Positions 1 through 53,945 are shown, numbered from the stretch's first letter. The stretch: 63,819 nt of DNA from an uncultured Candidatus Saccharibacteria bacterium (GCA_964517625.1 CAZFBW010000004.1:1-63819), one strand, 5' to 3'. Notes: generated from the letters alone by a model not told the origin. A program made the numbers and translations.

Positions 1-65
1 TAGTTAAATGGATATAACTGCGGAATTCTACGCCTTTATTCCAGGTTCGATTCCTGGCGAGGGCA
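1..65 (+). tRNA. tRNA, 5'-truncated by the window edge. Anticodon unresolved: loop ATTCTAC would give TCT/Arg, but the anticodon stem pairs poorly
   Basis: Canonical T arm CCAGG-TTCGATT-CCTGG (41-57), then acceptor strand CGAGGGC and discriminator A (58-65). D-loop-like TAGTTAAATGGATA at the start. No encoded CCA. Confidence 0.6.
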
Positions 66-30190: not shown

Positions 30191-31519
30191 CTAATCCCCA
30201 GAAAGCAGTTCAAGGTTTGCCAACCAAAGAGCTCCGTCTTTTTTGTTGGTAAACAAAAGAAGGAGGTCGTTGTGGTTTAGTTGTGGTTTTGTGACATCTA
30301 TTTTCTCGCCGGCCTCGACACCTAAATCAATAATTGAATACGACTGACCGTCTGTGTGGGTGTTGTATAAAGAATCAGAAAAAGAAACGGTGCCTTGATA
30401 CCAGTCATCAGGAAACCCCTCCTTTTTGAATGGAATAGTTGTTGGAACCCCACACAACAAAGAAGGAACCGTGTTTTTAAAAACACATTTTGAGGCAATT
30501 GTTTTTATGGAAAGGTTTGTTGTTTGTCCTGTTTGTTTATCAAACACAAAAGAAGCGATACCTTTAGTTGACCACATACTCGAAAGAAGAAGGTTTTCGT
30601 TTGGTGAAGCAATTGAAACAAGACCTGTTTTGTTACTAATAAGTCGTTTACCTGAAAAGGCCTCTAAGGTGTATCCAGGAATAAAAGCGGAAGCTTTTGG
30701 TGTCATATAGAGAATGTTGCCACCATAGTAAATCGTCCACTCAGACAAAGGAAGAGGGGTAATGTTCCATTTTGATTGAGGAAAAGGGTCTGCTGGTTGT
30801 GTTTTGTCTTCATTTAAGACATACAAAGCACCCCCTGTTGGTGTTTTTGTTACAAACGACAACTGCCGACCAGATTTGTTTGCTGAAACAGAGACAATGT
30901 TGTCAGGTAGGTCGGTAATTTTTTCAAGAGGAACAGAACTACTTGTTTGGGTTGTGGTTGGAACACGATATAACACCGAAACAACAACCCCCTTCTTTTC
31001 ATCAAAAACACGAAACACAACAAAGGTTCCGTTTGAGAAAAATAGGGCGTCATACACACCAGGAACCAACGTGTTTGTTACTTGGTTTGTTGTTATTGTT
31101 TTTGGGTTGTATTGGTGTATGTAGCCTGTGGTTCTATCAACAAATAAAATTACTGATGAGGTGGCACGTATTTGTTGTATTGATGGAACAGTTGTTGAAC
31201 CGCTTATTGTGGTCGAGGCGACTTGTTCTAAAACTTGTCTGTCAGCAAAACCATACCCAGCAACAGGTTTATCCCAAAGCTTAAAAAGAAGCTGTTCTTC
31301 CGCTTTAGTTACCTCAGTTTCAGATTGTCCAGGTTCTTCATTTTTTAACATATCAGTTAAAAACAAAAACCCTTTACGAGGACCGCTTTCTGGGAAGGGG
31401 TTGGTTGGTGGGGTTACTAAACCACCCTTCCCTCCTCCTGCAAAAAAGAAAAGCCAAACAATGACAACAATTGCAAAAAGGAGGATAAGAGCAAACAAGA
31501 TATAAAACGAACGCCGCAT
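30191..31519 (-). CDS. Membrane-anchored extracytoplasmic protein of unknown function (last gene of the T4SS-like operon)
   Basis: N-terminal TM helix FYILFALILLFAIVVIVWLFFFA, then a beta-rich 400-aa region. Packed 32 nt after the upstream gene. Confidence 0.6.
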   Translation of the reverse strand: MRRSFYILFALILLFAIVVIVWLFFFAGGGKGGLVTPPTNPFPESGPRKGFLFLTDMLKNEEPGQSETEVTKAEEQLLFKLWDKPVAGYGFADRQVLEQVASTTISGSTTVPSIQQIRATSSVILFVDRTTGYIHQYNPKTITTNQVTNTLVPGVYDALFFSNGTFVVFRVFDEKKGVVVSVLYRVPTTTQTSSSVPLEKITDLPDNIVSVSANKSGRQLSFVTKTPTGGALYVLNEDKTQPADPFPQSKWNITPLPLSEWTIYYGGNILYMTPKASAFIPGYTLEAFSGKRLISNKTGLVSIASPNENLLLSSMWSTKGIASFVFDKQTGQTTNLSIKTIASKCVFKNTVPSLLCGVPTTIPFKKEGFPDDWYQGTVSFSDSLYNTHTDGQSYSIIDLGVEAGEKIDVTKPQLNHNDLLLLFTNKKDGALWLANLELLSGD

Positions 31520-31551
31520 GATGTTTTTAGTATATCAAGAGAAAAACGTTT

Positions 31552-32403
31552 CTAGTATTGTCTACTAACATGCCAATGACGAGGGCCTGTTGGTTCATCA
31601 CAAAAAACAGCAGAAAGATATAAATAACGTTGTGTACAACCAGATGTTCCTCCTAATTTTGTGTTTGCTGGGTTTGTAATTAAGTTATACAAAGCATCCC
31701 CTTGAGTGAGTTGTAAATCAACAGCAGGTAAACACACCTCGGTTGTGTAGTTACATTTACCGTGAGTTTTGTGTCCAGGTTCTGTTCCGCCACTTACCAC
31801 AATTGAACATGTTGCACAGTCTCTCCTTAGACCAAGAAGAACATTAATTATTGTGTCTGGCAAACCTTGAATATCTGTACATGGCGGGATTGTTGTTTGT
31901 GCTCTTTGTGATTCGGTGCACGGAACAAAACCCTTGTTTGTGGTTATACCTGCCCCCTCTAGTCTTTTTTTAATATTGTCGTGCGACCGGGAGCCTGTCA
32001 TGGTCCTACTTCCTGTTGGGGTGGTTGGTGTTGTTGGTGTGGTTGGGGTTACTGGTGTAACACCGGTTCCAGTTGTTGGTTGAATTGCGGTAAGACCAAT
32101 ATTCCCCCTGAGGAGGTCTGGGTTAACTTGATTTAAAATAAGCCAAAGCAAAAGAACACCAAGAACACCATAAATTGCGCGCTTGATATCTTTTTTTATT
32201 TCAGCCGCCTTGCTTCCTGAATCGGCGGCGGTTAAACGGACACCTGAAGTTGCAAGAATGGCTGCACCTGCGGCAACACAAGCAACAACACCAAATATCC
32301 AAATAAACGAAAATACTTGCGTTGTGTTGTTGGTGATGGTTGTTGCCCCAGGGGAAATTGCATCAATGAAACCACCCTCAAGCGCATTGTACTGTATATC
32401 CAT
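31552..32403 (-). CDS. T4SS pilin-like (VirB2/TrbC-type) N-terminal domain fused by a TP-rich linker to a Cys-rich C-terminal domain with weak LAS-type metallopeptidase-like motifs
   Basis: Two hydrophobic helices separated by SGVRLTAADSGSKAAEIKKDIKRAI (pilin hairpin pattern). Linker TPVTPTTPTTPTTPT. C-terminal region has GHKTHG...AVDL and a terminal HWH. Confidence 0.45.
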   Translation of the reverse strand: MDIQYNALEGGFIDAISPGATTITNNTTQVFSFIWIFGVVACVAAGAAILATSGVRLTAADSGSKAAEIKKDIKRAIYGVLGVLLLWLILNQVNPDLLRGNIGLTAIQPTTGTGVTPVTPTTPTTPTTPTGSRTMTGSRSHDNIKKRLEGAGITTNKGFVPCTESQRAQTTIPPCTDIQGLPDTIINVLLGLRRDCATCSIVVSGGTEPGHKTHGKCNYTTEVCLPAVDLQLTQGDALYNLITNPANTKLGGTSGCTQRYLYLSAVFCDEPTGPRHWHVSRQY

Positions 32404-32422
32404 ACTAATTTAGTATAACCGA

Positions 32423-33394
32423 TTAACGAGAATCAAACACAATTTCAAGCGAGGCTGAGGCCTGTTGAAGACGACGTTTTATGTTTTCAATTGACACAGC
32501 AAGCCTTTTTATTCCATAACTATTTTCTTTTGGTCGCAAAACAACATGGGTTGGGGAGTTAGTTTTTATTGGAAGACCATCAAGAGTCCAAAAATACTCG
32601 TCCCCTGATGACGAACCAGAAAGTTTTGAAACATAAAAAGGCTCAACAGAAAGAGAAACTTCTTTTGTTGTTTCAAGTCGTTTGTTTATAGCGTTTGCGT
32701 GGTCAACTCCCAAAATATCGTCGTAGCGGTAAAAAATAGGAATAATTGGACTTGGGATGATGGTGATTCTTGAGCGGGCAGTGTTGCCACCAGCTGTTCT
32801 TGCAATTACTTCTACCACATTTTCTTCGGAGAGATAATCAAGTCTGGTTGTTAAGGTTTGTCTTCCTGTGCCAGACAAAGAAGAAAGATTCGAATCATTT
32901 ATTTTCCAGGAATATGCAACAAGAGCAGGGTTAACCAATCGACCACCCTCCACAAAAGAAGGAAGAGCAACGATACGCACAAGAGAACCCTCCCCTGGAA
33001 GAGCTTTACCTTCATAAAAAGGAGGAACATAGCTTTCAACTGCTTCCCACACCAAGTCAACTGTTTGAGGAGAAAGATTGTAAAACACAACAAGAGAGTC
33101 GTTGTTTGGTAAAACAATAGAGGCTTCTATTTGTGTAACCTCGCCCGTGCCTTTAGCATTTATTTTAATTGATTTTAAACCAAACCCAGAGGCAAACACC
33201 TTGTTATCAACCTTCCAGGTAATCATTGCAAGATCAACGTCGAAACTATAACTTCTCAGCGTTGCTGTGACTGATTCATATGCTTTTGGGTATTCTGGGG
33301 AAATTCGAATTTCTCCTCGAAGTTCAGCGGAGGCTTGCGAAAACATTGCAAGAGAAAGTAAAAAAGGTGCAACAATGAAGATTATTTTTTTCAT
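32423..33394 (-). CDS. Secreted protein of unknown function (T4SS-like operon)
   Basis: Signal peptide MKKIIFIVAPFLLSLAMFSQASA. 4-nt overlap with the VirB4 gene end. Confidence 0.6.
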   Translation of the reverse strand: MKKIIFIVAPFLLSLAMFSQASAELRGEIRISPEYPKAYESVTATLRSYSFDVDLAMITWKVDNKVFASGFGLKSIKINAKGTGEVTQIEASIVLPNNDSLVVFYNLSPQTVDLVWEAVESYVPPFYEGKALPGEGSLVRIVALPSFVEGGRLVNPALVAYSWKINDSNLSSLSGTGRQTLTTRLDYLSEENVVEVIARTAGGNTARSRITIIPSPIIPIFYRYDDILGVDHANAINKRLETTKEVSLSVEPFYVSKLSGSSSGDEYFWTLDGLPIKTNSPTHVVLRPKENSYGIKRLAVSIENIKRRLQQASASLEIVFDSR

Positions 33395-35226
33395 ACAGAT
33401 GTCCCATCTTTTTTGGTTTCTTGGAGCTCTTTTTTCATTTCTTTAATTTGAAGAAGTTGGGCTGGGTCGCTGGTTATGATTTGGTCTTCGGTGTATGAAG
33501 CAACAACTTTAATGGCCACATGTTTTAGTCCAGCAAAAAAGATTCCTTCACCAACACCAGACTCCAACAGTAAGAATTTTTCTTGGTCGGTTAGGTTGAA
33601 TGTTTTTTGGACAATATCAATAGAAGAAGGAGACTGTTTTAAGAGAAGTTGAATTGAGGAGTTGGTAATGATTGGAAGACCATACGGTGAGCGCAAAAAG
33701 TCGCCCACATCTTGAGTGATAGTTGCAAGACCAAGGAAATACTTACGCCCACGCTTTGCAAGACCAAACAAGAAGGATGCGGTGTCATCATTTTTCATCA
33801 TAATCCATGCCTCATCCACTACAAGCAAGCGCTTTTTGATATTTTTGCGTACCGCATTCCAAATATAGTGGGTGATAATGTACATAGCAACTGGTTTTAA
33901 CTCCTCTTCCATGTCACGAATTGAGAAACAAACTAGTTTTTTGTTGATGTCCACATTTGATGGTTGGTTGATAAAACCAGACCATGTTCCTTTGGTGTAT
34001 TTTGCTAAACGAGCAAGCAAACTATCTGCCCCATCAATGCCGGCGAGTACGGTTTCAAAATCAGATAAAAGAGGTGGTTCAAGTTCGGTGAAGTCGTTGT
34101 CCCCAACAATATCTTTAAGGGCATACGCTTCTGTAATTGCTTGGTCAACAATGGCGTCTTCTTCAGGGGAAAGTCCACCTAACATTACACGGAAAAGACC
34201 AACCAAATTTACAATGTTTGAACGAAGCACCTCCGAAGGAGACTCGTCTTCCCCAGGAACAGGCAAATCAAACGGGTTGATGTGGTGGTCACTCGTGAGT
34301 GAAATGTTGAAGTATCTTCCCCCCACTGATTCTGCAAGGTACTCATATTCACGCTCTGGGTCGATAATAATTACTTCGGTATCAAACATAAGTGTGCGGA
34401 GAATCTCTAGTTTGGTGGTGTAACTTTTACCAGAACCCGATTTTGCAAACGTGATGGAGTTGTAGTTTTCAAGCGAGAAGCGATCAAACAAAATAAGACT
34501 CCCGTTGTGCCTATTTAGGCCATACAAGATGCCTTTATCAGAAGAGAGGTCAAATGATACAAATGGGAAAAACGAAGAGAGTGGTGAGGTGTTTAACTTG
34601 TTTTGGATGAGAAGTTTGTCGTCTTGGAGAGGAAGTACTGATAGAAAAGCTTGGTCTTGCTGAAATAGTGCTGGTTTTAAGAAAACAAGTTTACTTTCAA
34701 AAATTCCCTTAATTTCATTTTCTACTTTATCAAGCTCTTTCTCATCATTTCCATAAATAGTGATGTATAAGGAAACCTCAAACATTTTTTCCTGTGATTG
34801 GGTGAGTCCGTCACGCAAGTCTTCCAAATCTTTGTAGGCAACTTCAAGAGAAGGGTCGCGAACCTTCCCTTTTTCGTCGTTTTGCATGATTTGACTTTCC
34901 ACTTCGGCAACTTTTCTTTGAAAATCTTTCATCACTTTTGCTGTATCAAGAGGAACAACGTGGATTGAGATATCAAAAATCTTATCAAGGTTAATAAGTG
35001 GACTTAACCAGTTATCGTTTAGGTAGCGAGGGTACGAGATGACGAAATAAGAACGAATGATGGTTGTTCCTAGGTTGAGTGCTTTTGGTTGTATGGAAAG
35101 AGCGCTCGGAGCAATGATGTCTTTTAATTGCATTTCTGCAACTTTGTATACCTGCTCAGGCAAAATAGGAGCAACCGGAGAGTCGGTTGTTTGTTTTTTT
35201 GGTGAAAGAAAGTCGAATAGTCCCAT
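33391..35226 (-). CDS. virB4: VirB4/TrbE-family conjugation-type ATPase, main part (in frame with 35233-35868 across a single TAA)
   Basis: Walker A AKSGSGKSYTTK, Walker B LLVVDEAW, and the central VirB4 signature YFVISYPRYL...W...L......DISIHV.P. Confidence 0.85.
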   Translation of the reverse strand: MGLFDFLSPKKQTTDSPVAPILPEQVYKVAEMQLKDIIAPSALSIQPKALNLGTTIIRSYFVISYPRYLNDNWLSPLINLDKIFDISIHVVPLDTAKVMKDFQRKVAEVESQIMQNDEKGKVRDPSLEVAYKDLEDLRDGLTQSQEKMFEVSLYITIYGNDEKELDKVENEIKGIFESKLVFLKPALFQQDQAFLSVLPLQDDKLLIQNKLNTSPLSSFFPFVSFDLSSDKGILYGLNRHNGSLILFDRFSLENYNSITFAKSGSGKSYTTKLEILRTLMFDTEVIIIDPEREYEYLAESVGGRYFNISLTSDHHINPFDLPVPGEDESPSEVLRSNIVNLVGLFRVMLGGLSPEEDAIVDQAITEAYALKDIVGDNDFTELEPPLLSDFETVLAGIDGADSLLARLAKYTKGTWSGFINQPSNVDINKKLVCFSIRDMEEELKPVAMYIITHYIWNAVRKNIKKRLLVVDEAWIMMKNDDTASFLFGLAKRGRKYFLGLATITQDVGDFLRSPYGLPIITNSSIQLLLKQSPSSIDIVQKTFNLTDQEKFLLLESGVGEGIFFAGLKHVAIKVVASYTEDQIITSDPAQLLQIKEMKKELQETKKDGTSV

Positions 35227-35232
35227 ATGTTT

Positions 35233-35868
35233 TTATGATTCGGTCATCCCGGCAGGTATCGACCTGTCTTGTTCGCCAGGGTTAAACATTTTGTAAAACA
35301 ACTCAACAACTTCCTCGGTGCCAAGTTTTTGGGCGCGCAGTCCAACACGAGCAAGTCCCGACATAACAGAGGCAACACGTTGTTCAAGTTGAATGCGTGA
35401 GGCGGTAAACAATTCCTCATTTTCTTTTGCTGAGGTCTCTCCAAAAGGAAGAAGCGATGAACTTGGAGAAGTTTTAAGGGATGTGTTTAAGTACGGAATG
35501 ACGATAAAAAAATGTTTGGTCATAATATTGGTTTCGTCAGTGAACTTTTTAATGAATCCCATGTATTCACGAATTTGTATTCGTAGTAAGTCCTCTTTAA
35601 TGTGTGTTTGTCTTTCTTCAAGCATGTCTAGGTATGGTTTGATGTTGAGACGGCGCGACTGGATAAAGAATTGGACCGGAAACTCAAGTCCATTTAGAAG
35701 TGATTGAAATTGCATAAGCACCGCTTGTTGCTCCTCCTCACTTTTTAGTCCAAGGTTAAGCGAGTTGGTGATAAGAACAGCACGCAATTCTCCCCCTTTC
35801 ATCGTAATGATGCCGTCGCGAATGTGCTCAATAGGCACAAACTGTTGTGTGGCGTTTGAATTTGCCAT
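35233..35868 (-). CDS. virB4: VirB4 N-terminal segment (separate ORF only because of one in-frame TAA)
   Basis: Q.FVPIEHIRDGII..KGGELRAVL....LN..LKSEEEQ..V...F...LN.L..P.Q is typical of the extreme N-terminus of Gram-positive-type VirB4. 211 + 611 aa matches the usual size of about 800 aa. Confidence 0.7.
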   Translation of the reverse strand: MANSNATQQFVPIEHIRDGIITMKGGELRAVLITNSLNLGLKSEEEQQAVLMQFQSLLNGLEFPVQFFIQSRRLNIKPYLDMLEERQTHIKEDLLRIQIREYMGFIKKFTDETNIMTKHFFIVIPYLNTSLKTSPSSSLLPFGETSAKENEELFTASRIQLEQRVASVMSGLARVGLRAQKLGTEEVVELFYKMFNPGEQDRSIPAGMTES

Positions 35869-35910
35869 AGATACTACGTAGTATACCCCAGAATACTTGA
35901 AGAGAGGTGT

Positions 35911-36333
35911 TTATTCCTGTGGGTTACGGTCGAGCACGTCGAGTCCGAGGGAGACATCGTGAAGCTTGTCTGATTTTGCTTTTTGGATGAGGTCCTCTTT
36001 TTGTGTTTGGCTGATTACTTTTTCAATTCGCGTAGCTGCTTTTTTCTCTGGAACAATTTGTTTCCAGGTGTATATTTTTCCACCAGTGTAATAGCGAAGT
36101 GCGCTTTCAATCGTTTCAATAAGTGGGCGATTATTTACTTTAACAAACGCTAAAGCGAGAAAGAATCCAGAAACAGGGAGAATAAGAAGAAAAGCAAGAA
36201 ACTTGAATGGGATAAAATACCAAAGAAGAAACCCCAAACCACCCGCACCTAAAATGTAACCGAACTGTTTCAAAGTAAAAGGTCCAATAACTTTGTCTTC
36301 AATATCAATGAATTGTGGGACGCGGAATTGCAT
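35911..36333 (-). CDS. PrgI family (VirB3-like) T4SS membrane protein
   Basis: MQFRVPQFIDIEDKVIGPFTLKQFGYIL followed by two TM helices. Sits immediately upstream of VirB4, as in Gram-positive T4SS loci. Confidence 0.7.
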   Translation of the reverse strand: MQFRVPQFIDIEDKVIGPFTLKQFGYILGAGGLGFLLWYFIPFKFLAFLLILPVSGFFLALAFVKVNNRPLIETIESALRYYTGGKIYTWKQIVPEKKAATRIEKVISQTQKEDLIQKAKSDKLHDVSLGLDVLDRNPQE

Positions 36334-36387
36334 ATAAGAGTAAGTATAGCAAAAGATAGTATTTAGCGAGTGGAAGTAAAAACAACA

Positions 36388-37125
36388 CTACTGTACGGGC
36401 ACTTCTCGGTACGGGTCGATATTGTATGAAGTTGGCGCCACACTGTAGGTAGCAACGTGTGCACGGGGTGCAACAACTTTTTGCCCTCCCCCACTTAGAG
36501 CGTTCTCAAGTTCTTTTGGAATTGGTTTCTGTGGCTCTTCTTCCTCAACTGTTTTAATTTGTCCACGAATATTTTCGAGGCGCGCCTTGATTTCTTCGTC
36601 GTCTGGAATTGAACCCAGGAGGTTTAGCTGTTCAACAAGTTCAGAGTGAGACCCTTTGACCAGAATTTTTTTAGGACGCTTTTCGGTTGGAGAAACCGGG
36701 GATTTTTCAATGGCGCTTTCGCGTTTGGTTGTGTCGAGAATAACTTTACGTAACTCTTCTTTGTTGTCTTCCTCGTTTTCTCCAACTTTTAATACTTTTA
36801 CTTCTCCAACTTCCTCCCCCATAAGAGCAACGCGCGCTTTTTGGAGAATGGTTTTATCCATATCTTGCGCTAATTTGAAAGCCGTTGCTTCGTCAATTTC
36901 AAGAGCTTCTTCTAGTGCTTTTACTGCAACACTCGGGTCAATTGCCCCAAGTAAAAGCAAAGTAATAGCGTTTTTAAGAGGAAGGTATTTTGAAATAGGA
37001 AGAGCATACAACTTACCCAAAACAGCGGACGCTTTGTTTACTTCATCACCAAGAAGCAACTCCTGCACTTCAGGTGGAGCTTTTTGAAACAGGTCTTGAA
37101 TTTTTGATTGAAGGTTGTTGTCCAT
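36388..37125 (-). CDS. Hypothetical acidic cytoplasmic protein (T4SS-like operon)
   Basis: 245-aa ORF with no TM segment and no recognisable motif. Confidence 0.5.
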   Translation of the reverse strand: MDNNLQSKIQDLFQKAPPEVQELLLGDEVNKASAVLGKLYALPISKYLPLKNAITLLLLGAIDPSVAVKALEEALEIDEATAFKLAQDMDKTILQKARVALMGEEVGEVKVLKVGENEEDNKEELRKVILDTTKRESAIEKSPVSPTEKRPKKILVKGSHSELVEQLNLLGSIPDDEEIKARLENIRGQIKTVEEEEPQKPIPKELENALSGGGQKVVAPRAHVATYSVAPTSYNIDPYREVPVQ

Positions 37126-37143
37126 GTTCTTTCTGTACCACTA

Positions 37144-39513
37144 TTATGTCACAAGTGTTGCTTCTTTTTCATTCGCCGGAGCTGTTTGGGTTGCTTGTGT
37201 TGGGGCTTGTGTTTGAGGCGGTGTGGAGACATTAATGTTTGCTGCGCTAGGGTTTTTTGACATAAAGTTTTTTAGTAAATCGTTAATGTCTTGCCCCATA
37301 GTAAGTTGTTGTTTCGCTTCCTCAACACGCGCAGCGGTTTGTTCTGCTGTCTCGATGGTGAGCTCCGGTTTTTCAATATTAACTTTCTCATATTTGATAC
37401 CATCCCCCGGATTAACGCGTTCATTATACATAGATAAAAGTTCCTCCCTAAGATTTTCAACGTTCTCTCTATGTTGTTTTTTCTTCTCACCGATTGCAAC
37501 ACGTGCCTTGTCGTATGCTTTCTTTTCTTCTTCGGTTGCTCTTGGCATTGCGGCGAGGTTTTCTTCCAATTTCTCCATTTCTTTCTTGTGAGATTCTTCT
37601 AACTCTGTGAAAGGATCATTTTTTATAACATCTTTAGCAAGATCTGAGTCGTTAAGGTTTACAAGGTGGTCTACCCTACTCTCAAGTTCTTCTTTGGTTG
37701 TACCACGAGACAAATAACCATCAATGCTTATCATTTGCTTTCTAAGTTCATCGTCACCTTTTACCGCATCACGTAAAGCGGTTCTTGATTTAAGATCAGA
37801 CGCTGTGTAGGCTTTAATTTTTTGAGATTTTTTCGCAGCGTTTTCTCTGTCGATACCCACTTGTTTTTCTTGAGCAAGCTCACTATCAGTCATTGCGTCT
37901 CTACCAGAAAGCCCTGCAGCCTTGAAGGCTGTTTTTTGAAGAAGCTGACTCGGCGTGTTGTCTCTACCTCGTAAATATCGCCAACGAGCATTTTCATCAG
38001 TCATCGTACTTGCTTGAGCTAAGGTTTCTTTTTGGTAGGCGTCTTTTGCTTGGTTTGCTGTTTGTAATCTTCCTGTAACACCAAGACCTTTTGAAAGTCC
38101 TCCCATGTTGCCAGCAATCTTCATGGTGTTCGTGTTGCGTGCATCATAACTACTATTTGCAAGCATGTTTGCAAGTCCAAGTTTTGCTCTACCAGAAAAA
38201 GTATCTTTTTGGTTTTGAAGCCCTTCGCTTGTTGACCAGCGAGCGGCTGCTGCACCAATAGTGCCACGCGCAAGTAAGCCTGCCCCACCGGTTGCTACAC
38301 CAATTGCTGCTCCTGTTGCAAAGCCACCAACTTTTCCAACAGCGTTTGCTGCCATTTGTCCAACTGAACCAGAAACTGATTTGGTGACTTTAAGCATGAT
38401 ATGAAGCACGATAAGCATCATGAGGACATTAAAAATCTGCGCAATACTTTCCCCAGAACCTATATTTTTAAAGGCCCCAGTCATTGCCATAGACAAATAA
38501 AGCATAAGCATAAATACAATAGACACAGCAAGTTGTTCAAAAAGAATTTGACGAAGTTTCTGGGCGGCGTCTCCTAGTTTTGGAATTACTGCGTCAACAA
38601 ACAAAAGAGGGGAAGCAACAATAACAAATGAAAGAGCAAGAGTGCGCATCATTAAAATTCCTGCAGCAATAAAAAAGATATATGTTGCATAGAGAATGTA
38701 AGCAATAATTAACAAAACCGGGAAAATACCACTCATTCTTTTTAATACGTCACCACTTGATTGGCTCGATGGATCATTTTTGTCTGCTGCCATAAGTAAA
38801 CTTTGAAGTCCAAGTCGAGACATTAGTTGCGCTCCAGCGGTTTGGTTGCTAGTTGCTCTTCTGGAATCATAGGTTATGTTTCCTGATGACTCACTAAAGA
38901 CATAACCTGGTCCCATTACATTTTTATAAATACCGACGGAAACAATATTTGACAAGTCAATTGCAGCGCGGGTAAGTGGGTAGGAGAAGTTTACAAAAAG
39001 TCCGAATATAATTACCCACGGTAAGTAGCGCTTAAAAACATCACTTTTATTAATGATGTACATAAAAGCAAGCCACAACCCCGAGAACACAACAAACATG
39101 GAAATGATTTGTCGAACGACCTGCCAAAGCGGGTAAAGAGCATCTGGCGCCCATGTTTTAAAATTAAGAATACCAACATTAATAACGTAATCAAGAAGGT
39201 TTGCTGAAATCCAAAGAGCAAAACCGGCAAACTGAAGGAGGGTAACCCTGATAATCCACTCAATACCAGCACCAATACAAACAGTAAACCACGACGTTGG
39301 GGAAGTGGCAGAGCACTCCTTTGGGAATACATAGTCTGACGGCAAATCACCCCTACCTACATTCGGGGTTGTGCTGGGAGGGGGGTTGGTTGTGTTATCA
39401 CAATTACCTAATTGTTGACAATCAAGAGCGTGTGCTGTTGGTGTGGTATCAAAAAAAGAAAAGGAAAGACCAAACACCACAAATGCCAAGATTAGGATAG
39501 ACCTCCATTTCAT
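37144..39513 (-). CDS. VirB6/TrbL-like polytopic T4SS channel protein with a long hydrophilic C-terminal extension
   Basis: Signal peptide plus at least 7 hydrophobic helices over about 430 aa, a Gly/Ala-rich segment, then a coiled-coil-like Lys/Glu-rich C-terminus of about 330 aa. Confidence 0.6.
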   Translation of the reverse strand: MKWRSILILAFVVFGLSFSFFDTTPTAHALDCQQLGNCDNTTNPPPSTTPNVGRGDLPSDYVFPKECSATSPTSWFTVCIGAGIEWIIRVTLLQFAGFALWISANLLDYVINVGILNFKTWAPDALYPLWQVVRQIISMFVVFSGLWLAFMYIINKSDVFKRYLPWVIIFGLFVNFSYPLTRAAIDLSNIVSVGIYKNVMGPGYVFSESSGNITYDSRRATSNQTAGAQLMSRLGLQSLLMAADKNDPSSQSSGDVLKRMSGIFPVLLIIAYILYATYIFFIAAGILMMRTLALSFVIVASPLLFVDAVIPKLGDAAQKLRQILFEQLAVSIVFMLMLYLSMAMTGAFKNIGSGESIAQIFNVLMMLIVLHIMLKVTKSVSGSVGQMAANAVGKVGGFATGAAIGVATGGAGLLARGTIGAAAARWSTSEGLQNQKDTFSGRAKLGLANMLANSSYDARNTNTMKIAGNMGGLSKGLGVTGRLQTANQAKDAYQKETLAQASTMTDENARWRYLRGRDNTPSQLLQKTAFKAAGLSGRDAMTDSELAQEKQVGIDRENAAKKSQKIKAYTASDLKSRTALRDAVKGDDELRKQMISIDGYLSRGTTKEELESRVDHLVNLNDSDLAKDVIKNDPFTELEESHKKEMEKLEENLAAMPRATEEEKKAYDKARVAIGEKKKQHRENVENLREELLSMYNERVNPGDGIKYEKVNIEKPELTIETAEQTAARVEEAKQQLTMGQDINDLLKNFMSKNPSAANINVSTPPQTQAPTQATQTAPANEKEATLVT

Positions 39514-39601
39514 ACTGTATATAATACCATACTAAAAACCTAAAGTTTTGTTGGTAATAAACAAAAATACAACCACCGTAGGCAGTTGTATTTTTGTGTC
39601 T

Positions 39602-41482
39602 TTAGTTTCCAGAGTCTACACTACCCCCCCGACTGTTTACTTCTTGTAAATACTGTTCACATTCGTCAAAAATCGTTTTGATTGGTTCGCTTCCAGTGAT
39701 TTCATCGGACTTCCCTTCGATTTCTTTTTGGATGATTGGCACTTTTTGTGACATAAGCAAATCAAGATTGTCTCCCACTTCAAGCGGAAGAATGATTCCA
39801 CGTGAAATTGCATCACGATAGTCTTGGAACAAGGAAAGTATTTTAGAAATATTTTTTGATGCAGTAAGTGCAGACAGGGTGTTGGTAAGGAACGTGTTTG
39901 TTACTGTTATCTTTGAACGAACAGGCGTGGTTTGTGAAGTGATTGGATCTAAAACTTCTCGTTTCTTTGCGTTGGCGCGATTAGTAAAATTAGTAATTCT
40001 AACGTCATCGGTTGCTGGCATGTATCCTAAACTTCCCCGGATGTTTTGTGTGCATGTGGTAATACCGGTGACGAAGTTTTGGTATTGGTTTACATACGAA
40101 TCAATCTGACTTAATTGGCCCTGAACTTTTGTCATAACCACTTGGTGGTCTCTAATTGCATCTTTTGCTGGACCAGCCACTGCGTCGCGCTCTTCTGGTG
40201 TTGAGTTGTCGACTGATTCCGTGGATGTTGCAACACCGCTTCTGTTCACGAAAGCGTTTTGTCCAACAGCAGAGTATGTGTCTGTGGTGCCAATGTAATT
40301 AATGCTTGCGGTGTTAGCGCTCCCCCCTTCACCTAAATTACCAAGGTATGAAACAGTTCCCGTAAGAGCATCAAATGAACCACGAAGATCTGCGACCTGC
40401 TGACCAACTTGCCTTACATCTCTAACAAACCCAGCTACCTCTTGAATGCCCTTAAAAACATCCACAATACCTTTAATAGCATCATCTGCCAAAGGTTTCT
40501 CTCCCCCTCCAACGAAGAGAGGTTTAAGGAGTTGATTGACATCAATTTGTTCTGCGAGTTTGGAAACACTTTCACCAGGCTTTAAGGTTTCGTACGCAAC
40601 ACACTCTGGTTCTGCCCCGTCAATTGGATTTCCTACATCGTCCAAGGCTGGACGCTCCTCAATACACTTTTTATCTGAAAGAAACCCTGTAGCACTTTCT
40701 TTTGCGGCAAATTTCGCAGCTTCTGCAGTTCTTCGTTGTACCTCAAGAGCAGTTTTTACTCCACGAGTATAGTCATTGTTTCCTTCAGTCGTCCTTGAAA
40801 GCCAACTGTCCCAACTGAAGAAGTTGTTACTTGATTCAATCGCTAAAAGTTTTTTCTGAACAGCTGGATTGCTCGGGTCTCCCATACAGAGTTCGCTATA
40901 CATTGAATTGAAATCATTTCCTTGACCAGCCTCACCAAGTTCTAGTGCACCTTGTTCTCCTTCAATAATTCTTTGTAGTTCCGTACCATTATCTGCACAA
41001 AGGGTATTTTGAACACGAACAGGGGTCGGGTCTTTTGGTTCAGGCGAACCCTTACTCAACTCCCCTCGTCGTTTTTTAATGAGGTCGATAATAATTCCTT
41101 CAGTTGATGCGGTTCTGTTTGCTTCAAGAAGAGATATTTGGTTGCGAAGCATGTTGGTTTCAGTGTTCTTGATGTAGGCCTCTGGATTTAAAACAAGAAG
41201 AGGATCACCTTGAAAACCACTCATTAACCATCGCTGAGTCTCGCTTTCTATTTGTTTGCCAGCATTTGAGCCAAAAAGTGCCGTCATCGGGTCAGTTACC
41301 GTTTGTTTTACCTTCATTGCAATGGTTGCGACTTTTGTTGCCGTCTGTATTCCTTGTTGGACAGTTTGTATTGCTTTTGCAATCAAACCAGTTACTTCTG
41401 AGTATCCGCCAGTACCAGCAACAGAAGCATATCCCTGTAAAGGAACAAGGAGAAACATTGAAATAATGATAATTTTTTTCAT
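39602..41482 (-). CDS. Large secreted protein of unknown function (T4SS-like operon)
   Basis: Signal peptide MKKIIIISMFLLVPLQGYASVA. 626 aa. Confidence 0.6.
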   Translation of the reverse strand: MKKIIIISMFLLVPLQGYASVAGTGGYSEVTGLIAKAIQTVQQGIQTATKVATIAMKVKQTVTDPMTALFGSNAGKQIESETQRWLMSGFQGDPLLVLNPEAYIKNTETNMLRNQISLLEANRTASTEGIIIDLIKKRRGELSKGSPEPKDPTPVRVQNTLCADNGTELQRIIEGEQGALELGEAGQGNDFNSMYSELCMGDPSNPAVQKKLLAIESSNNFFSWDSWLSRTTEGNNDYTRGVKTALEVQRRTAEAAKFAAKESATGFLSDKKCIEERPALDDVGNPIDGAEPECVAYETLKPGESVSKLAEQIDVNQLLKPLFVGGGEKPLADDAIKGIVDVFKGIQEVAGFVRDVRQVGQQVADLRGSFDALTGTVSYLGNLGEGGSANTASINYIGTTDTYSAVGQNAFVNRSGVATSTESVDNSTPEERDAVAGPAKDAIRDHQVVMTKVQGQLSQIDSYVNQYQNFVTGITTCTQNIRGSLGYMPATDDVRITNFTNRANAKKREVLDPITSQTTPVRSKITVTNTFLTNTLSALTASKNISKILSLFQDYRDAISRGIILPLEVGDNLDLLMSQKVPIIQKEIEGKSDEITGSEPIKTIFDECEQYLQEVNSRGGSVDSGN

Positions 41483-41490
41483 AATATTTA

Positions 41491-42420
41491 TTATGGCGCA
41501 ATAAGGCCTTTAGTAAAAAGATAGCCGTTTTCAGTTGGTTGAAATACAATATTTTCTCGGTCAAAATATTCCGAGAAAGCATTAATCATAGAAAAAGCCG
41601 TTTGATACACCGTTACATAATCGTGCGCACCAATACTTGCGCGCAGTGCGTCGGTGTCAATTGCGCGCATATTAATAACTGTTTGCAAGTATGCCTCTAT
41701 AGCATTTAAAGTGCTTAAGTGATACACCGTTGCGCTCGTCGGAACAGAGATGGCAAGAAAGTTGTCACGCAACTCTTTTAGAATTGCAATTTTTTTATCA
41801 ACTAAAGCAAGCGTCTCCTTTTTCTTTGTCAGTGCATATTCTTCAAAGAGGTCAATGTCAGGATATTTAGACCCTTCCACAATTGCAAGCGTTGCGACAC
41901 CGCCTAAAGTGTTGCCATATTTTTGGATATTTGTTTTTGTCGCAGGAATTGTTTTTATGTCAGAAAGGGTGTAGGTTTTTGCCGCCGCCTTGAGAGATTC
42001 TTGTTCAAAGATTGCTTTTGCGATATTGGCTCGCTCCTCTGCGGTTAATGTTCCTTGTTGCTCCAAAATTGCTGTTGCGGTGTAAACATTTTTTGCGTAC
42101 TGTGTAGTGATATTGTTTGGGTCATTCAAATTCGTTAGATCAACTTGCTCTGGTTGCAGTGTATTGATGTCTGGAGCATCTTTTTGGGCTTGTGCGGTGA
42201 CTGCAACTTTCCAGTTCGGTACGCTCTCCCCCTCTTTGACATCATTTAACCCAGTCCTCTTTTCGTTGGTACTTGAAAGAACAGAGAGAAGTTCCCCAGA
42301 AGCTGTTTGTTTCTTGGTGGTTGGTGAATAGAAGCTTAAATATAATGTGGAAAAAATAAAAGCAATTCCAAGCGCTGTGATAACAATAGTTCTTTTGTTT
42401 TCTAGCATAATAAGGGGCAC
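41491..42420 (-). CDS. Membrane-anchored protein of unknown function
   Basis: N-terminal TM helix IVITALGIAFIFSTLYLSFY. 309 aa. Confidence 0.55.
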   Translation of the reverse strand: MPLIMLENKRTIVITALGIAFIFSTLYLSFYSPTTKKQTASGELLSVLSSTNEKRTGLNDVKEGESVPNWKVAVTAQAQKDAPDINTLQPEQVDLTNLNDPNNITTQYAKNVYTATAILEQQGTLTAEERANIAKAIFEQESLKAAAKTYTLSDIKTIPATKTNIQKYGNTLGGVATLAIVEGSKYPDIDLFEEYALTKKKETLALVDKKIAILKELRDNFLAISVPTSATVYHLSTLNAIEAYLQTVINMRAIDTDALRASIGAHDYVTVYQTAFSMINAFSEYFDRENIVFQPTENGYLFTKGLIAP

Positions 42421-42457: not shown

Positions 42458-43876
42458 CTACTTAAGAGGATATATTTCTCCCCTATCCACACGAAAAAGA
42501 GAAAGAGATGAAGAGATGTCCCCATGGAAAATAATGCGCCCATACGGTGAAACCACAAGGTTTGGCGCATCAGTTGAGGAAACAATTAGATAGCTTCGTG
42601 TTTGAGCGGCGATAACACGTGCAATTAAATAGTACGACATGAACAGCCAGGGGCTTTTATGGAATACAGGCAAGTGGGACTGAAGAACAACGAGGGAGAC
42701 ATCGTTTGTTTGGAGAGGTGTAATTGCATCATGAGAAAACATTTCTGAACAAAGGAGCGTTCCAATATTTCCATACGGTGTTTCAAATGCTTGAGGAATT
42801 TTCCCAGCGCTGTAGGTGTGTTCGCTGATGTATGTTTGTACTTCTTTATCAGAAAACCATAACGACATAATGTTTTTAAAAACAAGTGGTAGGTATTCAT
42901 TAAAAGGAAACATAAACCACTTACCCCTCCCTTGTAGGTTGTCTTCATCGACATCGTAAGCATAGCTGTAATTAGAAAGTTTGTAGCGGTGTATGGTTGC
43001 GGCGCTATCAATGACGGTTGCGATTTTGCGTTGTGTAAGTTCTTTTTTGTTTATAGTGGTTAAGTTTTGCAAGAAGCGTGTGTCTTCCGGAAGAATGAGC
43101 ATATCAGGACTGGTTGATGCCTGTCGGAGTAGAGAAAGAATTAAATCTTTTTGTTCTACATATAAGCGTGGATCATTTTCACGTTCGATGTTTTCTCGCC
43201 TTAAACTAACAACACCAATGACACCATCACGAGACATTGTTTTTACGGGAACAGCGCTATGAACAACAAGCCATCCGACAACAATACAAACAAGGTATAT
43301 AACAACAATACGTTTTTTCGCGACAAATAAAAGAGAAACAAGGAGCGCCAAGATTCCAGAAAGAATAAAGATTCCACCTATTGAGGCATATTCAACAAGT
43401 GGGGTTATTGCAAGTGCGTTTCCAAAATTTCCCGCAGACCAATGAAGTCCAATCGTTGCACTTCCCGGAGAATAAAATAATGTGCTTAAAGCAACACTAC
43501 GCATACATTCTGCAACTGTAACCGAAACACCAAGGATAAGCGGTAACCACGTAGCGTTGTTTCGAAAACGAAAATGCGGGTATCCCACAAGAGGAAAAAA
43601 TAACGACGCAGTGAACGCCATTACAACAAGGAGAGCAGTGATGGCGGGTAATTGCCACGTTGTTGGAAGCCATACAACCGGATAGGCAGTATAGAGCCAT
43701 GATAAAGAAAAGAGATTAAACACAAACGCACCAAAAAACCACGCAAGGAGGTAGTGCAAACGAGGGCGAGATGATTTTAGAAATAAGAAAATTCCAACAA
43801 GAACAGAAACAGAAATAACAACATAAAAATATTGTAAAACAAAGCTTATAGCAATTCTTTCGAAAGCGAAATCCAT
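42458..43876 (-). CDS. lnt: Apolipoprotein N-acyltransferase-like protein (Lnt; polytopic N-terminus plus CN-hydrolase domain)
   Basis: Multiple N-terminal TM helices. CN-hydrolase triad context LILPEDT (E), KWFMFPFNEYLP (K), LLCSEMF (C). Confidence 0.6.
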   Translation of the reverse strand: MDFAFERIAISFVLQYFYVVISVSVLVGIFLFLKSSRPRLHYLLAWFFGAFVFNLFSLSWLYTAYPVVWLPTTWQLPAITALLVVMAFTASLFFPLVGYPHFRFRNNATWLPLILGVSVTVAECMRSVALSTLFYSPGSATIGLHWSAGNFGNALAITPLVEYASIGGIFILSGILALLVSLLFVAKKRIVVIYLVCIVVGWLVVHSAVPVKTMSRDGVIGVVSLRRENIERENDPRLYVEQKDLILSLLRQASTSPDMLILPEDTRFLQNLTTINKKELTQRKIATVIDSAATIHRYKLSNYSYAYDVDEDNLQGRGKWFMFPFNEYLPLVFKNIMSLWFSDKEVQTYISEHTYSAGKIPQAFETPYGNIGTLLCSEMFSHDAITPLQTNDVSLVVLQSHLPVFHKSPWLFMSYYLIARVIAAQTRSYLIVSSTDAPNLVVSPYGRIIFHGDISSSLSLFRVDRGEIYPLK

Positions 43877-46595: not shown

Positions 46596-46916
46596 TTATG
46601 CAGTTTGTTCTCGTGCTAATTCGGCTTTGACGGTATTTAAAACTTTCTCGCGAGCGGTTGCAAAGACCTCTTCGTAGTTTGGAAGAAGGTGTTTAAGTGT
46701 TGTTGCATAAAATTCATTCCCCATAGAAACAGATGCCTCAAGAGCGGCAAACTGATCTTTTCCAACGACTTTGTGTACTGCAAAAAGAAATTGTTTTTGA
46801 ATTGTGTCGGCAATCGCGAGTAGCATTTCATCGCGTTCTTGTTCTGGAAGCGCAGATAAGCCGAACTCATCGATAATTTTTTTGTAGTTTTCTTGGAGTG
46901 TCGTTGTTTGGTCCAT
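46596..46916 (-). CDS. Hypothetical small helical protein
   Basis: 106-aa ORF, tightly packed, no recognisable motif. Confidence 0.5.
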   Translation of the reverse strand: MDQTTTLQENYKKIIDEFGLSALPEQERDEMLLAIADTIQKQFLFAVHKVVGKDQFAALEASVSMGNEFYATTLKHLLPNYEEVFATAREKVLNTVKAELAREQTA

Positions 46917-46927
46917 GGTGTGTAGAA

Positions 46928-48547
46928 TTAACTTGTACGAGAGGCACTTTTCTTCACAAGGTCTTCGATTCTGCCCAGATATTGTTCAAGAGATTCATTA
47001 CTGTATTCGGTGACGATTGGATTTTCAATGCCAAGTTTTGTCGCAAGGTTTCCAATTGAGGCAATGACATCAGAAACTTCTTTACGTACATCGCGGTTGC
47101 CATTTGCAGTTGCGATTTCAAATGTTGTAAACGACCCGTCGTGGAGCATTTTGTATGGCGAGATGTTGGCACTCTTCATTTTTTCACAAACGGCGTTGTA
47201 TGTAACATCGTCTAAGTTAAATAAAGACACGACCGCAGGAACATTTTTCGTTGCAAGTAAGGAGAACACATTCCTTTCTTCAAGAGAGAGACTTGTTTGA
47301 GGGGTTACTTCTTTTTTTACTACTGCTCCTGCAGAAGGTTTTGGTTCTAGGCGGGGCATTCCTGTTTCAGGAAAAGGAGAAGTGGAAAGAACTACTGCAA
47401 CAGCGACCTGTTGTGCCAAAGGGCCACCGGTAATAACTTTTTCAACATTACTTTTAAATATTTTTAGTAATCGAGCAACCCCTGGCGCAGCGTCACTTCC
47501 TGTTTCTAAGATTGGAGCTTTGTCTATTTGTGGTGGGAGAGGTGCTGGTGCTAAGGGTTTTGTTGGTTCGAGTGGTACAGCAACAGGAGGAACTATTTTT
47601 TCTGGGACAGACACTGTAGATGTTGGTGCGGTTGCTTCTAGAACCTTTTCTTCGGGCGTGGTGTTTGGAGGAACGACCGTTTCTTTCTCTGTCATAACAG
47701 AGAAAGTTGGTTGCATTTGTGGTGACACAGGTACGACTCCAGGTCTTCCATAAACAACAAACGAAGGTTGTGTTTCAAGTGTCGGATTTTCTGGTTTACT
47801 TATCGGCATTTTTGGCCTAATGTCTCCCCCGCCAACTTTTTTATCTATCGAAGGAGAAGAAACAGAAATTGCCCCGTCGGGAACTTTATTTTTTTCTGGT
47901 GCCGTTTTTTTAAATTCTTCTTCTGCTGTTGCAATGTCTTTGGGTATACCAGAAAGAACACTGTTTAGTTTTACTGCAAACTGTGGGCTTGTGCCACGAC
48001 CTAAGTGCTCTACATCATTTTTAAGTGTGTTGAAAGATATTTTAGCAGAACCAATAACACCAAACATAAAAGAATTTGATAGTCCCTTGTCTTCCATTTC
48101 TTTTTTTGCGTTAGCGAGCATCTCTCTAATTTTTTCAGCGCGCTCATTGATATTTTTTAATTTCTCTTCTTCCGTCATTTCGAGAAAACTTTTTTCTGGT
48201 GTTTTTGCTGTGACTGAGCTAACTGGTTTTTCTTTCTCAGAAAGAGTATCGATTTTTATATTCTCCGGAACAAGTGCCGTCCCTTCTTCTGGTGCTGTTA
48301 CTACACCTTGTCCGAAAAGTTTTGGTGTCTCGTGTCTGACTTCAACTGCGGGAGTAACAGGTTGAACTATTTCTGGTGTAGCGGTAACTGGAGCAGGTAC
48401 GCCGAAAGCGCCGTGTTGTTCAACGACCGGTTCTGCTTCTACAACAACAGTAGGTTCCTCAACCGACACCTCTCTTTTTTCTGAAAGTGCGACAAATGTT
48501 CCACTTCCAGCTGGTTTTGAAACACTTGTATCTGAAAAGATAGACAT
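46928..48547 (-). CDS. Hypothetical Pro/Val/Thr-rich protein
   Basis: 539-aa ORF with low-complexity Pro-rich stretches and no recognisable catalytic motif. Confidence 0.5.
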   Translation of the reverse strand: MSIFSDTSVSKPAGSGTFVALSEKREVSVEEPTVVVEAEPVVEQHGAFGVPAPVTATPEIVQPVTPAVEVRHETPKLFGQGVVTAPEEGTALVPENIKIDTLSEKEKPVSSVTAKTPEKSFLEMTEEEKLKNINERAEKIREMLANAKKEMEDKGLSNSFMFGVIGSAKISFNTLKNDVEHLGRGTSPQFAVKLNSVLSGIPKDIATAEEEFKKTAPEKNKVPDGAISVSSPSIDKKVGGGDIRPKMPISKPENPTLETQPSFVVYGRPGVVPVSPQMQPTFSVMTEKETVVPPNTTPEEKVLEATAPTSTVSVPEKIVPPVAVPLEPTKPLAPAPLPPQIDKAPILETGSDAAPGVARLLKIFKSNVEKVITGGPLAQQVAVAVVLSTSPFPETGMPRLEPKPSAGAVVKKEVTPQTSLSLEERNVFSLLATKNVPAVVSLFNLDDVTYNAVCEKMKSANISPYKMLHDGSFTTFEIATANGNRDVRKEVSDVIASIGNLATKLGIENPIVTEYSNESLEQYLGRIEDLVKKSASRTS

Positions 48548-48660: not shown

Positions 48661-48784
48661 GGGCGGACACCTACGAGAGGGGTAATCCTTGAAAATCAAA
48701 AGGTTTTCGGCATTACCCTTTTCTTATTTTATGTTACAGGGTTCACAAAAAACCAATACAAAGATCTCTATCCCCACCCCAAAC

Positions 48785-53889: not shown

Positions 53890-53945
53890 GGAAACAAGTA
53901 TACACGTAAATATTGTGCGACATTAAGGTATACTATATTTCATCC

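Follow-up and report, generated by a model that had tools for sequence, protein, structure and literature searches.

A chromosomal type IV secretion locus beside dnaA in Patescibacteria, with a VirB4 motor in two genes and a pilin joined to a putative wall peptidase

Introduction

Patescibacteria, which live attached to other cells, account for a large part of the bacterial diversity that has not been cultured. Here we analyse a minus-strand gene cluster at positions 30191-42420 of a 63,819-nt stretch of DNA (CAZFBW010000004.1:1-63819, the whole of which is called the window below) that is predicted to encode a type IV secretion system (T4SS) of the kind found near the replication origin in this phylum. 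Quinonero-Coronel et al. (2025, Microb Genom), who surveyed 3,035 genomes of Patescibacteria, found VirB4 to form a monophyletic clade nested in the monoderm class MPF_FATA (PMC12102498). TrsD is its most abundant partner and adjoins virB4, genes for PrgI/VirB3, VirB6 and VirB2-like pilins lie near, and VirB1 homologues are linked to virB4 mainly in Paceibacteria; dnaA, dnaN, rnpA, ksgA and rpmH are frequent T4SS neighbours in Paceibacteria and Microgenomatia (PMC12102498). Relaxases occur in only 103 of the 3,035 genomes, and VirD4 homologues are present in most of them, usually distant from virB4 (PMC12102498).

The best studied system of this type is that of Southlakia epibionticum, whose T4SS cluster was found by transposon sequencing to be essential for epibiotic growth (Wang et al. 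2023, Cell; PMC10633639), making the origin-proximal T4SS of Patescibacteria the first shown to be essential for its own bacterium. In strain ML1 the cluster (SEML1_0004-0019) lies beside dnaA-dnaN and contains no recognisable relaxase or type IV coupling protein (T4CP) (PMC10633639). Its genes run in the order VirB6-like (0013), NTF2-like, PrgI (0010), TrsD-like (0009) and VirB4 (0008), followed by a Hedgehog/DD-peptidase protein (0007), a lysozyme/Cys-proteinase (0006) and an Ig-like protein (0005) (PMC10633639 supplement). A 2025 review treats the Patescibacteria systems as a new T4SS subgroup.

We consider it quite probable that the locus described here is a Patescibacterial T4SS which descended from monoderm conjugation machinery, became fixed at the replication origin, is inherited vertically and moves macromolecules between the epibiont and its host.

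Results

The cluster consists of minus-strand ORFs that are all co-directional and tightly packed, separated in the 5' to 3' direction of the operon by 8, 88, 18, 54, 42, 6, -4, 19 and 32 bp. The ORFs of an initial annotation made from the sequence were all recovered at their positions on the minus strand. That annotation counted ten tightly spaced genes, of which the shared direction and the spacing hold but the number does not: the count is given here as eleven, VirB4 being split. The list comprises g10 to g1 and, set apart, an Lnt-like neighbour.

g10, 41491-42420, minus strand: 309 aa, bitopic, first gene of the cluster, no family
g9, 39602-41482, minus strand: 626 aa, secreted, with a signal-peptide-like N-terminus, six Cys, acidic, no family
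g8, 37144-39513, minus strand: 789 aa, polytopic, weakly VirB6-like, its C-terminal extension long and hydrophilic ('extended VirB6' type)
g7, 36388-37125, minus strand: 245 aa, acidic, probably cytoplasmic, with a D-P-Y(-R-E) tail, no family
g6, 35911-36333, minus strand: PrgI/VirB3-like small membrane protein
g5, 35233-35868, minus strand: 211 aa, TrsD-like, a free-standing VirB4 N-terminal domain
g4, 33391-35226, minus strand: 611 aa, VirB4-type ATPase of the MPF_FATA/CD1110 type
g3, 32423-33394, minus strand: secreted, three tandem Ig-like beta-sandwich domains
g2, 31552-32403, minus strand: 283 aa, VirB2-type pilin hairpin, Thr/Pro-rich linker and C-terminal Cys/His domain
g1, 30191-31519, minus strand: 442 aa, bitopic, ectodomain probably a TolB-like beta-propeller, last gene
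Lnt-like neighbour, 42458-43876, minus strand: polytopic, divergent, 37 bp upstream of g10

The class of the system is set by g4, which scored 381 bits against the NCBIfam model NF045971 (conju_CD1110, cut-off 325), matched the TraG P-loop domain PF19044 of Pfam (E 5e-24) and has a readable Walker A (GSGKS) and Walker B (LLVVDE) motif. Its partner g5 matched the N-terminal portions of VirB4 models in NCBIfam and aligned end to end, weakly and below the cut-off, with the TrsD/TraD model NF041427 (E 1e-4); a Logan protein identical to g5 carries a precomputed assignment to PF26593, TraC-like. For g6, the PrgI/VirB3-like call of the initial annotation was borne out by a score of 37.7 bits against PF12666 PrgI (cut-off 27, E 3e-9). 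Judged by these model matches, the locus is a T4SS with a VirB4-family ATPase, and its CD1110-type VirB4, PrgI and TrsD-like g5 assign it to the monoderm class MPF_FATA.

Relatives were sought in a species-level genome collection, which yielded 529, and the best 80 loci were fetched and compared. These best 80 of 529 are all metagenome-assembled genomes of Patescibacteria (labelled Paceibacteria, Nomurabacteria, Parcubacteria or similar) with a VirB4 70-87% identical to that of the window, and PrgI was found in 77 of them.

The span 33391-35868 had been annotated as one VirB4 ORF. Its VirB4 identity stands, but an in-frame TAA at 35233-35235 divides it into ORFs of 211 and 611 aa. The N-terminal piece and the ATPase are separate genes in all 79 loci that carry both parts; in these loci the N-terminal piece terminates at a stop codon, the ATPase opens with its own ATG, and the two lie mostly in different frames, with gaps of 1-14 nt or ATGA overlaps between them. 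Furthermore, an independent Logan contig contains an identical ATPase and the same 211 + 611 gene calls. Because the separation recurs in 79 of 79 loci and in this contig, the split is genuine, and the comparison identifies it as the TrsD + VirB4 arrangement and not as damage. The alternatives that the TAA is a sequencing error, the mark of a pseudogene or a recoded stop were rejected, the split being kept in other frames across the 79 loci.

A variation on this arrangement was seen in two relatives, L044 (9501-10001) and L053 (4312-4757), where an insert of about 0.45-0.5 kb parts the trsD-like gene from virB4. The insert of L044 is bordered by AT-rich inverted sequence.

The operon lies between rsmA and yidC, close to the origin, as annotated initially. 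Downstream of it are rpmH-rnpA-yidC on the plus strand and dnaN and dnaA on the minus strand, the start of dnaA being 1.26 kb from the operon end; upstream are rsmA and, 2.2 kb off, a UvrD/PcrA-type helicase gene. The order rsmA-(lnt)-g10...g1-yidC-rnpA-rpmH-dnaA-dnaN recurs among the 80 loci, so that the synteny comparison proposed with the initial annotation gave a shared gene order, and yidC/dnaA adjoin the operon in 45 of the 47 loci whose downstream flank is 6.5 kb or longer. From genome to genome, the identity of VirB4 to the window protein tracks that of DnaA, YidC and RsmA (Spearman 0.83-0.86; rho 0.86 for DnaA). Median identities of VirB4 and DnaA are 84% and 85% in the near clade and 71% and 56% in the far clade, while g1, g2, g3, g8, g9 and g10 are 25-41% identical in the same genomes. 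Such identities are the mark of a core machine that is inherited vertically and whose motor is under constraint while its exterior evolves fast. The adjacency to yidC/dnaA in 45 of 47 loci and the co-divergence of VirB4 with DnaA support the reading of the operon as a vertically inherited, origin-proximal core apparatus and not a conjugative element. The initial proposal of a domesticated, Gram-positive-type core T4SS thus gains from the CD1110-type ATPase, the synteny, the co-divergence and the GC content, which is flat between locus and flanks.

Context scans covered the 63.8-kb window and its ORFs of at least about 100 aa. Neither a relaxase family nor a VirD4/TcpA coupling protein nor a plasmid replication gene was found among the scanned ORFs of the window, and a repeat search of it returned no oriT-like, attachment-site or element-end repeats, all in agreement with the initial annotation. 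A relaxase, a coupling protein, an ICE-type integrase and attachment boundaries, hallmarks of a conjugative element, were not found in the window, and the insertion site is the same in 45 of 47 genomes. Its sole recombinase, encoded at 53913-54884 on the plus strand, 11.5 kb from the operon, is of the XerC/D type and also scores above the cut-off of the archaeal XerA model. It lies between genes for RNase HII and an Exo_endo_phos-family protein, and was rejected as the integrase of an integrative and conjugative element (ICE) on the grounds of these matches and housekeeping neighbours.

The locus might nevertheless be the transfer module or a relic of an ICE that has its relaxase, coupling protein and integrase genes beyond the window; the function of the locus would then be DNA conjugation. 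Its core genes are homologous to monoderm conjugation genes, a UvrD/PcrA-type helicase is encoded 2.2 kb upstream, and VirD4 homologues are common in Patescibacteria, where T4CP genes are often distant from virB4 (PMC12102498). However, the helicase gene is syntenic and housekeeping, the insertion context is constant in 45 of 47 genomes, VirB4 co-diverges with DnaA, YidC and RsmA, and the GC content matches that of the flanks. Integrase, relaxase, T4CP and repeat boundaries are absent for about 30 kb upstream and 21 kb downstream, and relaxases are rare in the phylum as a whole (103 of 3,035 genomes; PMC12102498). We regard the reading of the locus as an ICE module or relic as very improbable.

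The gene product annotated as pilin-like, g2, proved to be a pilin in part. The pilin portion is limited to residues ~26-93, and the C-terminal ~150 aa (residues ~136-283) form a separate conserved domain. In an AlphaFold2 model, helices 27-59 and 63-93 make a hairpin that is followed by a disordered Thr/Pro linker and a confidently predicted alpha/beta C-domain. Against PF18895 T4SS_pilin, g2 itself scored 25.6 bits (cut-off 26.6), and its positional orthologues and other proteins with the same C-domain scored 30-41 bits, with TrbC/VirB2 matches in addition. The two-helix hairpin and the match to a family hidden Markov model (HMM) make a good case for a predicted VirB2/TrbC-type N-terminal part.

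The C-domain carries the motif GGTEPGH...D...HWH. Among 33 diverse sequences, E208, H211, D229, H276 and H278 are invariant and H214 is nearly so; several Cys are conserved as well. What occupies the C-terminal position varies between genomes: in more distant ones the hairpin at the g2 position is joined either to a true VanY domain (M15; 38 bits, which exceeds the cut-off) or to an SLT lytic transglycosylase domain, and in one type the g2-type domain is followed by SLT, while some orthologues have N-terminal Ig-like domains. When 1.84 billion representative proteins were scanned in full with HMMER, the g2-type domain turned up in only 224 clusters. Most matches are ~260-330 aa long with the domain at the C-terminus; of nine genuine long matches, seven contain T4SS_pilin and three of those seven continue into SLT. 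By this survey, the domain occurs almost only behind T4SS pilin hairpins.

The relation of this domain to known peptidases was addressed by profile-profile alignment with hhalign. The g2 domain aligned weakly with the VanY-type orthologues (score 25.1, E 1e-3, probability 17-24%), the score exceeding those of all 150 column shuffles (maximum 22.0). In the register obtained, H214...D229 falls on SxHxxGxAxD and the conserved Glu and H276 fall on ExWH, and the LAS/M15 motif (H-x(n)-D; H-x-H/E-x-x-H) is present in the C-domain. When the g2 family was compared with single VanY-bearing orthologues, the pilin part alone was aligned. We conclude with moderate confidence that the C-domain is probably a very divergent LAS/M15-like wall peptidase carried on a pilin anchor.

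A second pilin-like gene, mostly of ~330 aa (615 aa in L065), follows g1 in 22 related loci, including L005, L006, L008, L010, L012-L014 and L018, where it is sited between g1 and yidC; no such gene lies between g1 and yidC in the window. In the only copy scanned, that of L014 (15571-16575), SLT was matched below threshold (E 3.5e-4, 20.5 bits, cut-off 21.3).

The start of g3 overlaps the virB4 stop by 4 bp. AlphaFold2 predicts a signal peptide and three tandem Ig-like beta-sandwiches (mean predicted local distance difference test score, pLDDT, 92), and Foldseek aligned the model with tandem-Ig surface proteins of the PDB, among them Hoc, SiiE, an ice-binding adhesin and SbsB (E 1e-8 to 1e-6); a sequence profile search of g3 against the PDB gave nothing significant. 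Some g3 homologues carry PF06832 or PF19408, and the gene was found in 77 of 80 loci. The last gene, g1, which has orthologues in 54 loci (blastp), stops 3 bp short of yidC, a gene convergent with it. A transmembrane (TM)-like segment at residues 7-25 is followed by an ectodomain whose profile matched eleven distinct TolB sequences over one stretch, weakly but consistently (E 0.02-0.1), and single orthologues have PD40 and beta-propeller matches, which is suggestive, not proof, of a TolB-like beta-propeller.

A separate envelope machine is predicted about 10 kb from the operon, at 18808-20508 on the plus strand, where a PilB/GspE-type ATPase that includes an MshEN domain (T2SSE, E 6e-113) identifies a type IV pilus motor.

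These proteins bear on the possibility that the T4SS is mainly an adhesion or pilus organelle, in which VirB4 builds a pilin fibre for host attachment and nothing is translocated. The operon does encode a VirB2-type hairpin protein, and many relatives have two; the surface proteins are adhesin-like (the Ig repeats of g3, the propeller of g1) and evolve fast, as host-recognition proteins do. Yet the sole pilin-like protein, g2, bears a 150-aa enzyme-like domain that is atypical of a minimal pilin, and the VirB6/VirB3 channel components are kept and conserved. Type IV pili are moreover the documented adhesion organelle of the phylum, and the window has its own type IV pilus ATPase gene (18808-20508). 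A purely adhesive organelle seems to us improbable.

The putative channel component g8 has a signal-like segment and at least five TM-like segments and is located upstream of PrgI, as is SEML1_0013 of Southlakia. It matched NF046089 (CD3337/EF1877) with E 0.003 and 16.5 bits against a cut-off of 120. TrbL/VirB6 is the commonest Pfam match among its orthologues, although in 5 of 41 (best E 3e-4), and a profile search against PDB sequences returned nothing significant. The VirB6-like assignment of the initial annotation is thus weak but consistent.

Six products, including the C-terminal extension of g8, had been listed initially as having no assigned function. The window proteins g1, g3, g7, g9 and g10 matched no family in Pfam or NCBIfam, and no family recurred when 124 orthologues of g1, g7, g9 and g10 were pooled and scanned with Pfam. 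With g3 predicted to be Ig-like, the adhesin-like fold that had been suggested as a search target, and g1 a probable propeller, three proteins specific to the lineage, g7, g9 and g10, are left without a family. The C-terminal D-P-Y(-R-E) tail of g7, a protein predicted to be probably cytoplasmic, is invariant. In each of 57 loci a single ORF has a DPYRE tail in its last 15 residues, and in the window g7 is the only one to have it; the tail could be a docking or recognition peptide. The fastest-evolving member is g9, with orthologues 22-28% identical and conserved Cys, and its profile gave weak coiled-coil-type matches to PDB sequences, none of them significant. In g10, a TM-like segment (residues 12-30) precedes an ectodomain of ~270 aa; orthologues at the equivalent position in 31 loci are 25-34% identical, and no match was obtained in Pfam, NCBIfam or the PDB profile search.

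The gap between g9 and g8, the largest of the operon, contains an 18-nt inverted repeat (39556-39602; 89% complementary, 11-nt loop) that may form an intra-operon RNA hairpin.

The composition of the operon also bears on a third alternative, a machine for the uptake of DNA or RNA: a T4SS working as an importer, like Helicobacter ComB or archaeal Ced, that feeds host nucleic acids to a nucleotide-auxotrophic cell. The lack of a relaxase and of a nearby T4CP would agree with ComB, which is not known to have either. CedB and CedD gave weak P-loop matches, but these span the shared ATPase core only and are far under the cut-off, and with Pfam and NCBIfam none of the operon's products was recognised as a nuclease or DNA-binding component. 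In class ABY1 the T4SS genes adjoin comF, recG and radA (PMC12102498). A 2026 preprint on a cultivated member of the phylum reports host RNA uptake together with tubular structures, possibly T4SS pili, yet states that the uptake mechanism is unresolved (10.64898/2026.06.21.733656). Furthermore, deletion of comEC in Southlakia abolishes competence and leaves the cells viable, whereas the T4SS is essential, and for this reason the essential role of the T4SS is not natural transformation (PMC12857230). We hold nucleic-acid import to be unlikely as the function of the locus, and place it ahead of a pure adhesion fibre and, last, an ICE relic.

The Lnt-like neighbour aligned with nearly all of TIGR00546 lnt (3-395 of 395) at 81 bits, under the equivalog cut-off of 133, with a weak PF00795 match. 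Its homology to Lnt, as annotated, is full-length, whereas its identity as Lnt fails this cut-off. In only 16 loci was a gene of this kind seen to lie between rsmA and g10. The protein is a divergent Lnt homologue and a possible member of the system.

Several other features of the window were recorded. At 48689-49834 on the plus strand, ~6 kb upstream of the operon, a protein with two LysM domains and a peptidase M23 domain is encoded; M23 and LysM domains are present on some VirB1 homologues (PMC12102498). An 841-aa ORF at 13922-16447 (minus strand), the part of the window with the highest GC content (0.52 versus ~0.41), gave repeat-type matches only (EB module, CC domain), and its product may be a Cys-rich repetitive surface protein. 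Two acidic, co-directional ORFs of 106 and 539 aa, at 46596-46916 and 46928-48547 on the minus strand upstream of uvrD, matched no Pfam or NCBIfam family. The window start cuts a tRNA gene (1-65, plus strand; Rfam tRNA, 32 bits, 5' truncated).

Discussion

Combining these observations, we propose the following model. The translocon set consists of g8 (VirB6-like), g6 (PrgI/VirB3) and the two-piece VirB4 motor (g5 + g4), and VirB4 with its detached N-terminal domain would energise assembly and transport through the VirB6/VirB3 channel. Beside it, the three-Ig protein g3, the pilin-Cys/His protein g2 and the membrane-anchored, propeller-like g1 make up an envelope module. For g2, a 283-aa protein with a 150-aa globular C-domain in its structural model, we propose that it either polymerises or serves only to anchor a zinc wall peptidase to the machine, where the peptidase would open the peptidoglycan of its own cell or of the host. 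In this role g2 may correspond to VirB1/PrgK/TrsG and, in Southlakia, to the DD-peptidase and lysozyme proteins whose genes come directly after virB4. The proteins g3, g1 and g9 would present a fast-evolving host-contact surface. The machine would pass macromolecules, protein or nucleic acid, between epibiont and host, and would not mobilise a genetic element.

Several observations weigh against this model or parts of it: (i) the peptidase assignment of g2 is not secure, since hhalign gave it a probability of no more than 17-24%, a Foldseek search with the model of the complete g2 returned nothing from the PDB and BFVD at E < 0.2, its matches being helical-hairpin and histidine-kinase-like noise, neither g2 nor its C-domain had a significant match in PDB profile searches, and the C-domain had none in Pfam; (ii) the VirB6 call for g8 is weak, below every curated cut-off; (iii) no VirB8-like protein was identified, the candidates g10 and g1 having no VirB8 or TcpC match in Pfam, NCBIfam or the PDB profile search, where VirB8/NTF2-like folds had been suggested initially; (iv) boundaries of the operon were not obtained, a consensus promoter scan finding fewer promoter-like sites than in shuffled controls and a consensus terminator scan finding terminator-like sites no more frequent than in controls; (v) essentiality is extrapolated to Paceibacteria from another class, Saccharimonadia; and (vi) a T4CP may be encoded elsewhere in the genome, VirD4 usually lying far from virB4 (PMC12102498), in which case DNA transfer would be possible.

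A more far-reaching idea, which we offer as speculation and think doubtful, is that the pilin-hydrolase fusions constitute the working tip of the machine. The hairpin, polymerising or sitting at the channel mouth, would display a wall-cutting domain, of the GGTEPGH...HWH type in the window and with VanY or SLT variants, often also a further copy bearing SLT, in relatives. The T4SS would be a wall-piercing conduit that taps the host and possibly imports host RNA or cytoplasm instead of exporting; the His/Asp/Cys domain would then be a new LAS-like peptidase family found only with T4SS pilins.

The kind of system described here has already been published (Wang 2023; Quinonero-Coronel 2025), having been described in 2023-2025, and the window is a clean Paceibacteria example of it, not a new kind. 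Within this frame, its features are a motor as conserved as DnaA and surface parts that diverge several-fold faster, and the modular combination of a pilin anchor and an exchangeable wall hydrolase provides a concrete handle on how one or two cell walls are crossed.

With the monoderm conjugation systems of class MPF_FATA (pGO1/pSK41 trs, pIP501 tra, pCF10 prg, CTn2 CD1110) the locus shares the CD1110-type VirB4 and PrgI, and with the pGO1 subclass also a free-standing TrsD-like protein before VirB4. The order VirB3, TrsD, VirB4, one further gene and wall hydrolase is one that we take to mirror trsC-D-E-F-G of pGO1/pSK41. In contrast to those systems, the locus has no relaxase, T4CP or oriT near it and is chromosomally fixed and vertically inherited. 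It has a VirB2-type pilin hairpin, which Gram-positive conjugation systems lack, and the predicted hydrolase of the window and its relatives is LAS/VanY-like or SLT on a pilin anchor, whereas that of MPF_FATA is SLT+CHAP on a single TM helix. Like the LAS/M15 enzymes (VanY, VanX, DD-carboxypeptidase), the g2 C-domain has H...D, H-x-H and a conserved Glu; it differs from them in extra conserved Cys residues and in having no significant Pfam, PDB-sequence or Foldseek match, and would at best be a very divergent, lineage-restricted branch of LAS/M15.

The module order of the window, VirB6...PrgI-TrsD-VirB4 followed by hydrolase and Ig-like proteins next to dnaA, matches that of Southlakia. The Southlakia cluster encodes an array of six small free pilins, which lie on the opposite strand, along with separate large hydrolases and a protein of the NTF2-like (VirB8-like) type. 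In the window the one pilin hairpin is joined to a putative peptidase, an NTF2-like protein was not detected, and the accessory proteins g1, g7, g9 and g10 differ. Essentiality was shown in Southlakia (class Saccharimonadia) only.

From the clade surveyed by Quinonero-Coronel et al. (PMC12102498) the locus does not differ in kind: it shares the MPF_FATA-related VirB4, the adjacent TrsD, PrgI/VirB3, a weakly VirB6-like protein, a VirB2-like pilin, a relaxase-free vicinity and the dnaA, dnaN, rnpA, rpmH and ksgA (rsmA) context. The initial view that named families do not explain this architecture holds only in part, the TrsD, PrgI, VirB4, pilin and wall hydrolase modules being described for the clade. 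Parts that we did not find spelled out in that survey are the pilin-Cys/His fusion, the VanY/SLT exchange, the three-Ig protein with its translational coupling to VirB4, the propeller-like g1 and the DPYRE-tailed g7. The novelty of the locus thus resides at the level of parts, in the pilin-anchored exchangeable hydrolase, the lineage-restricted His/Asp/Cys domain and the DPYRE-tailed protein.

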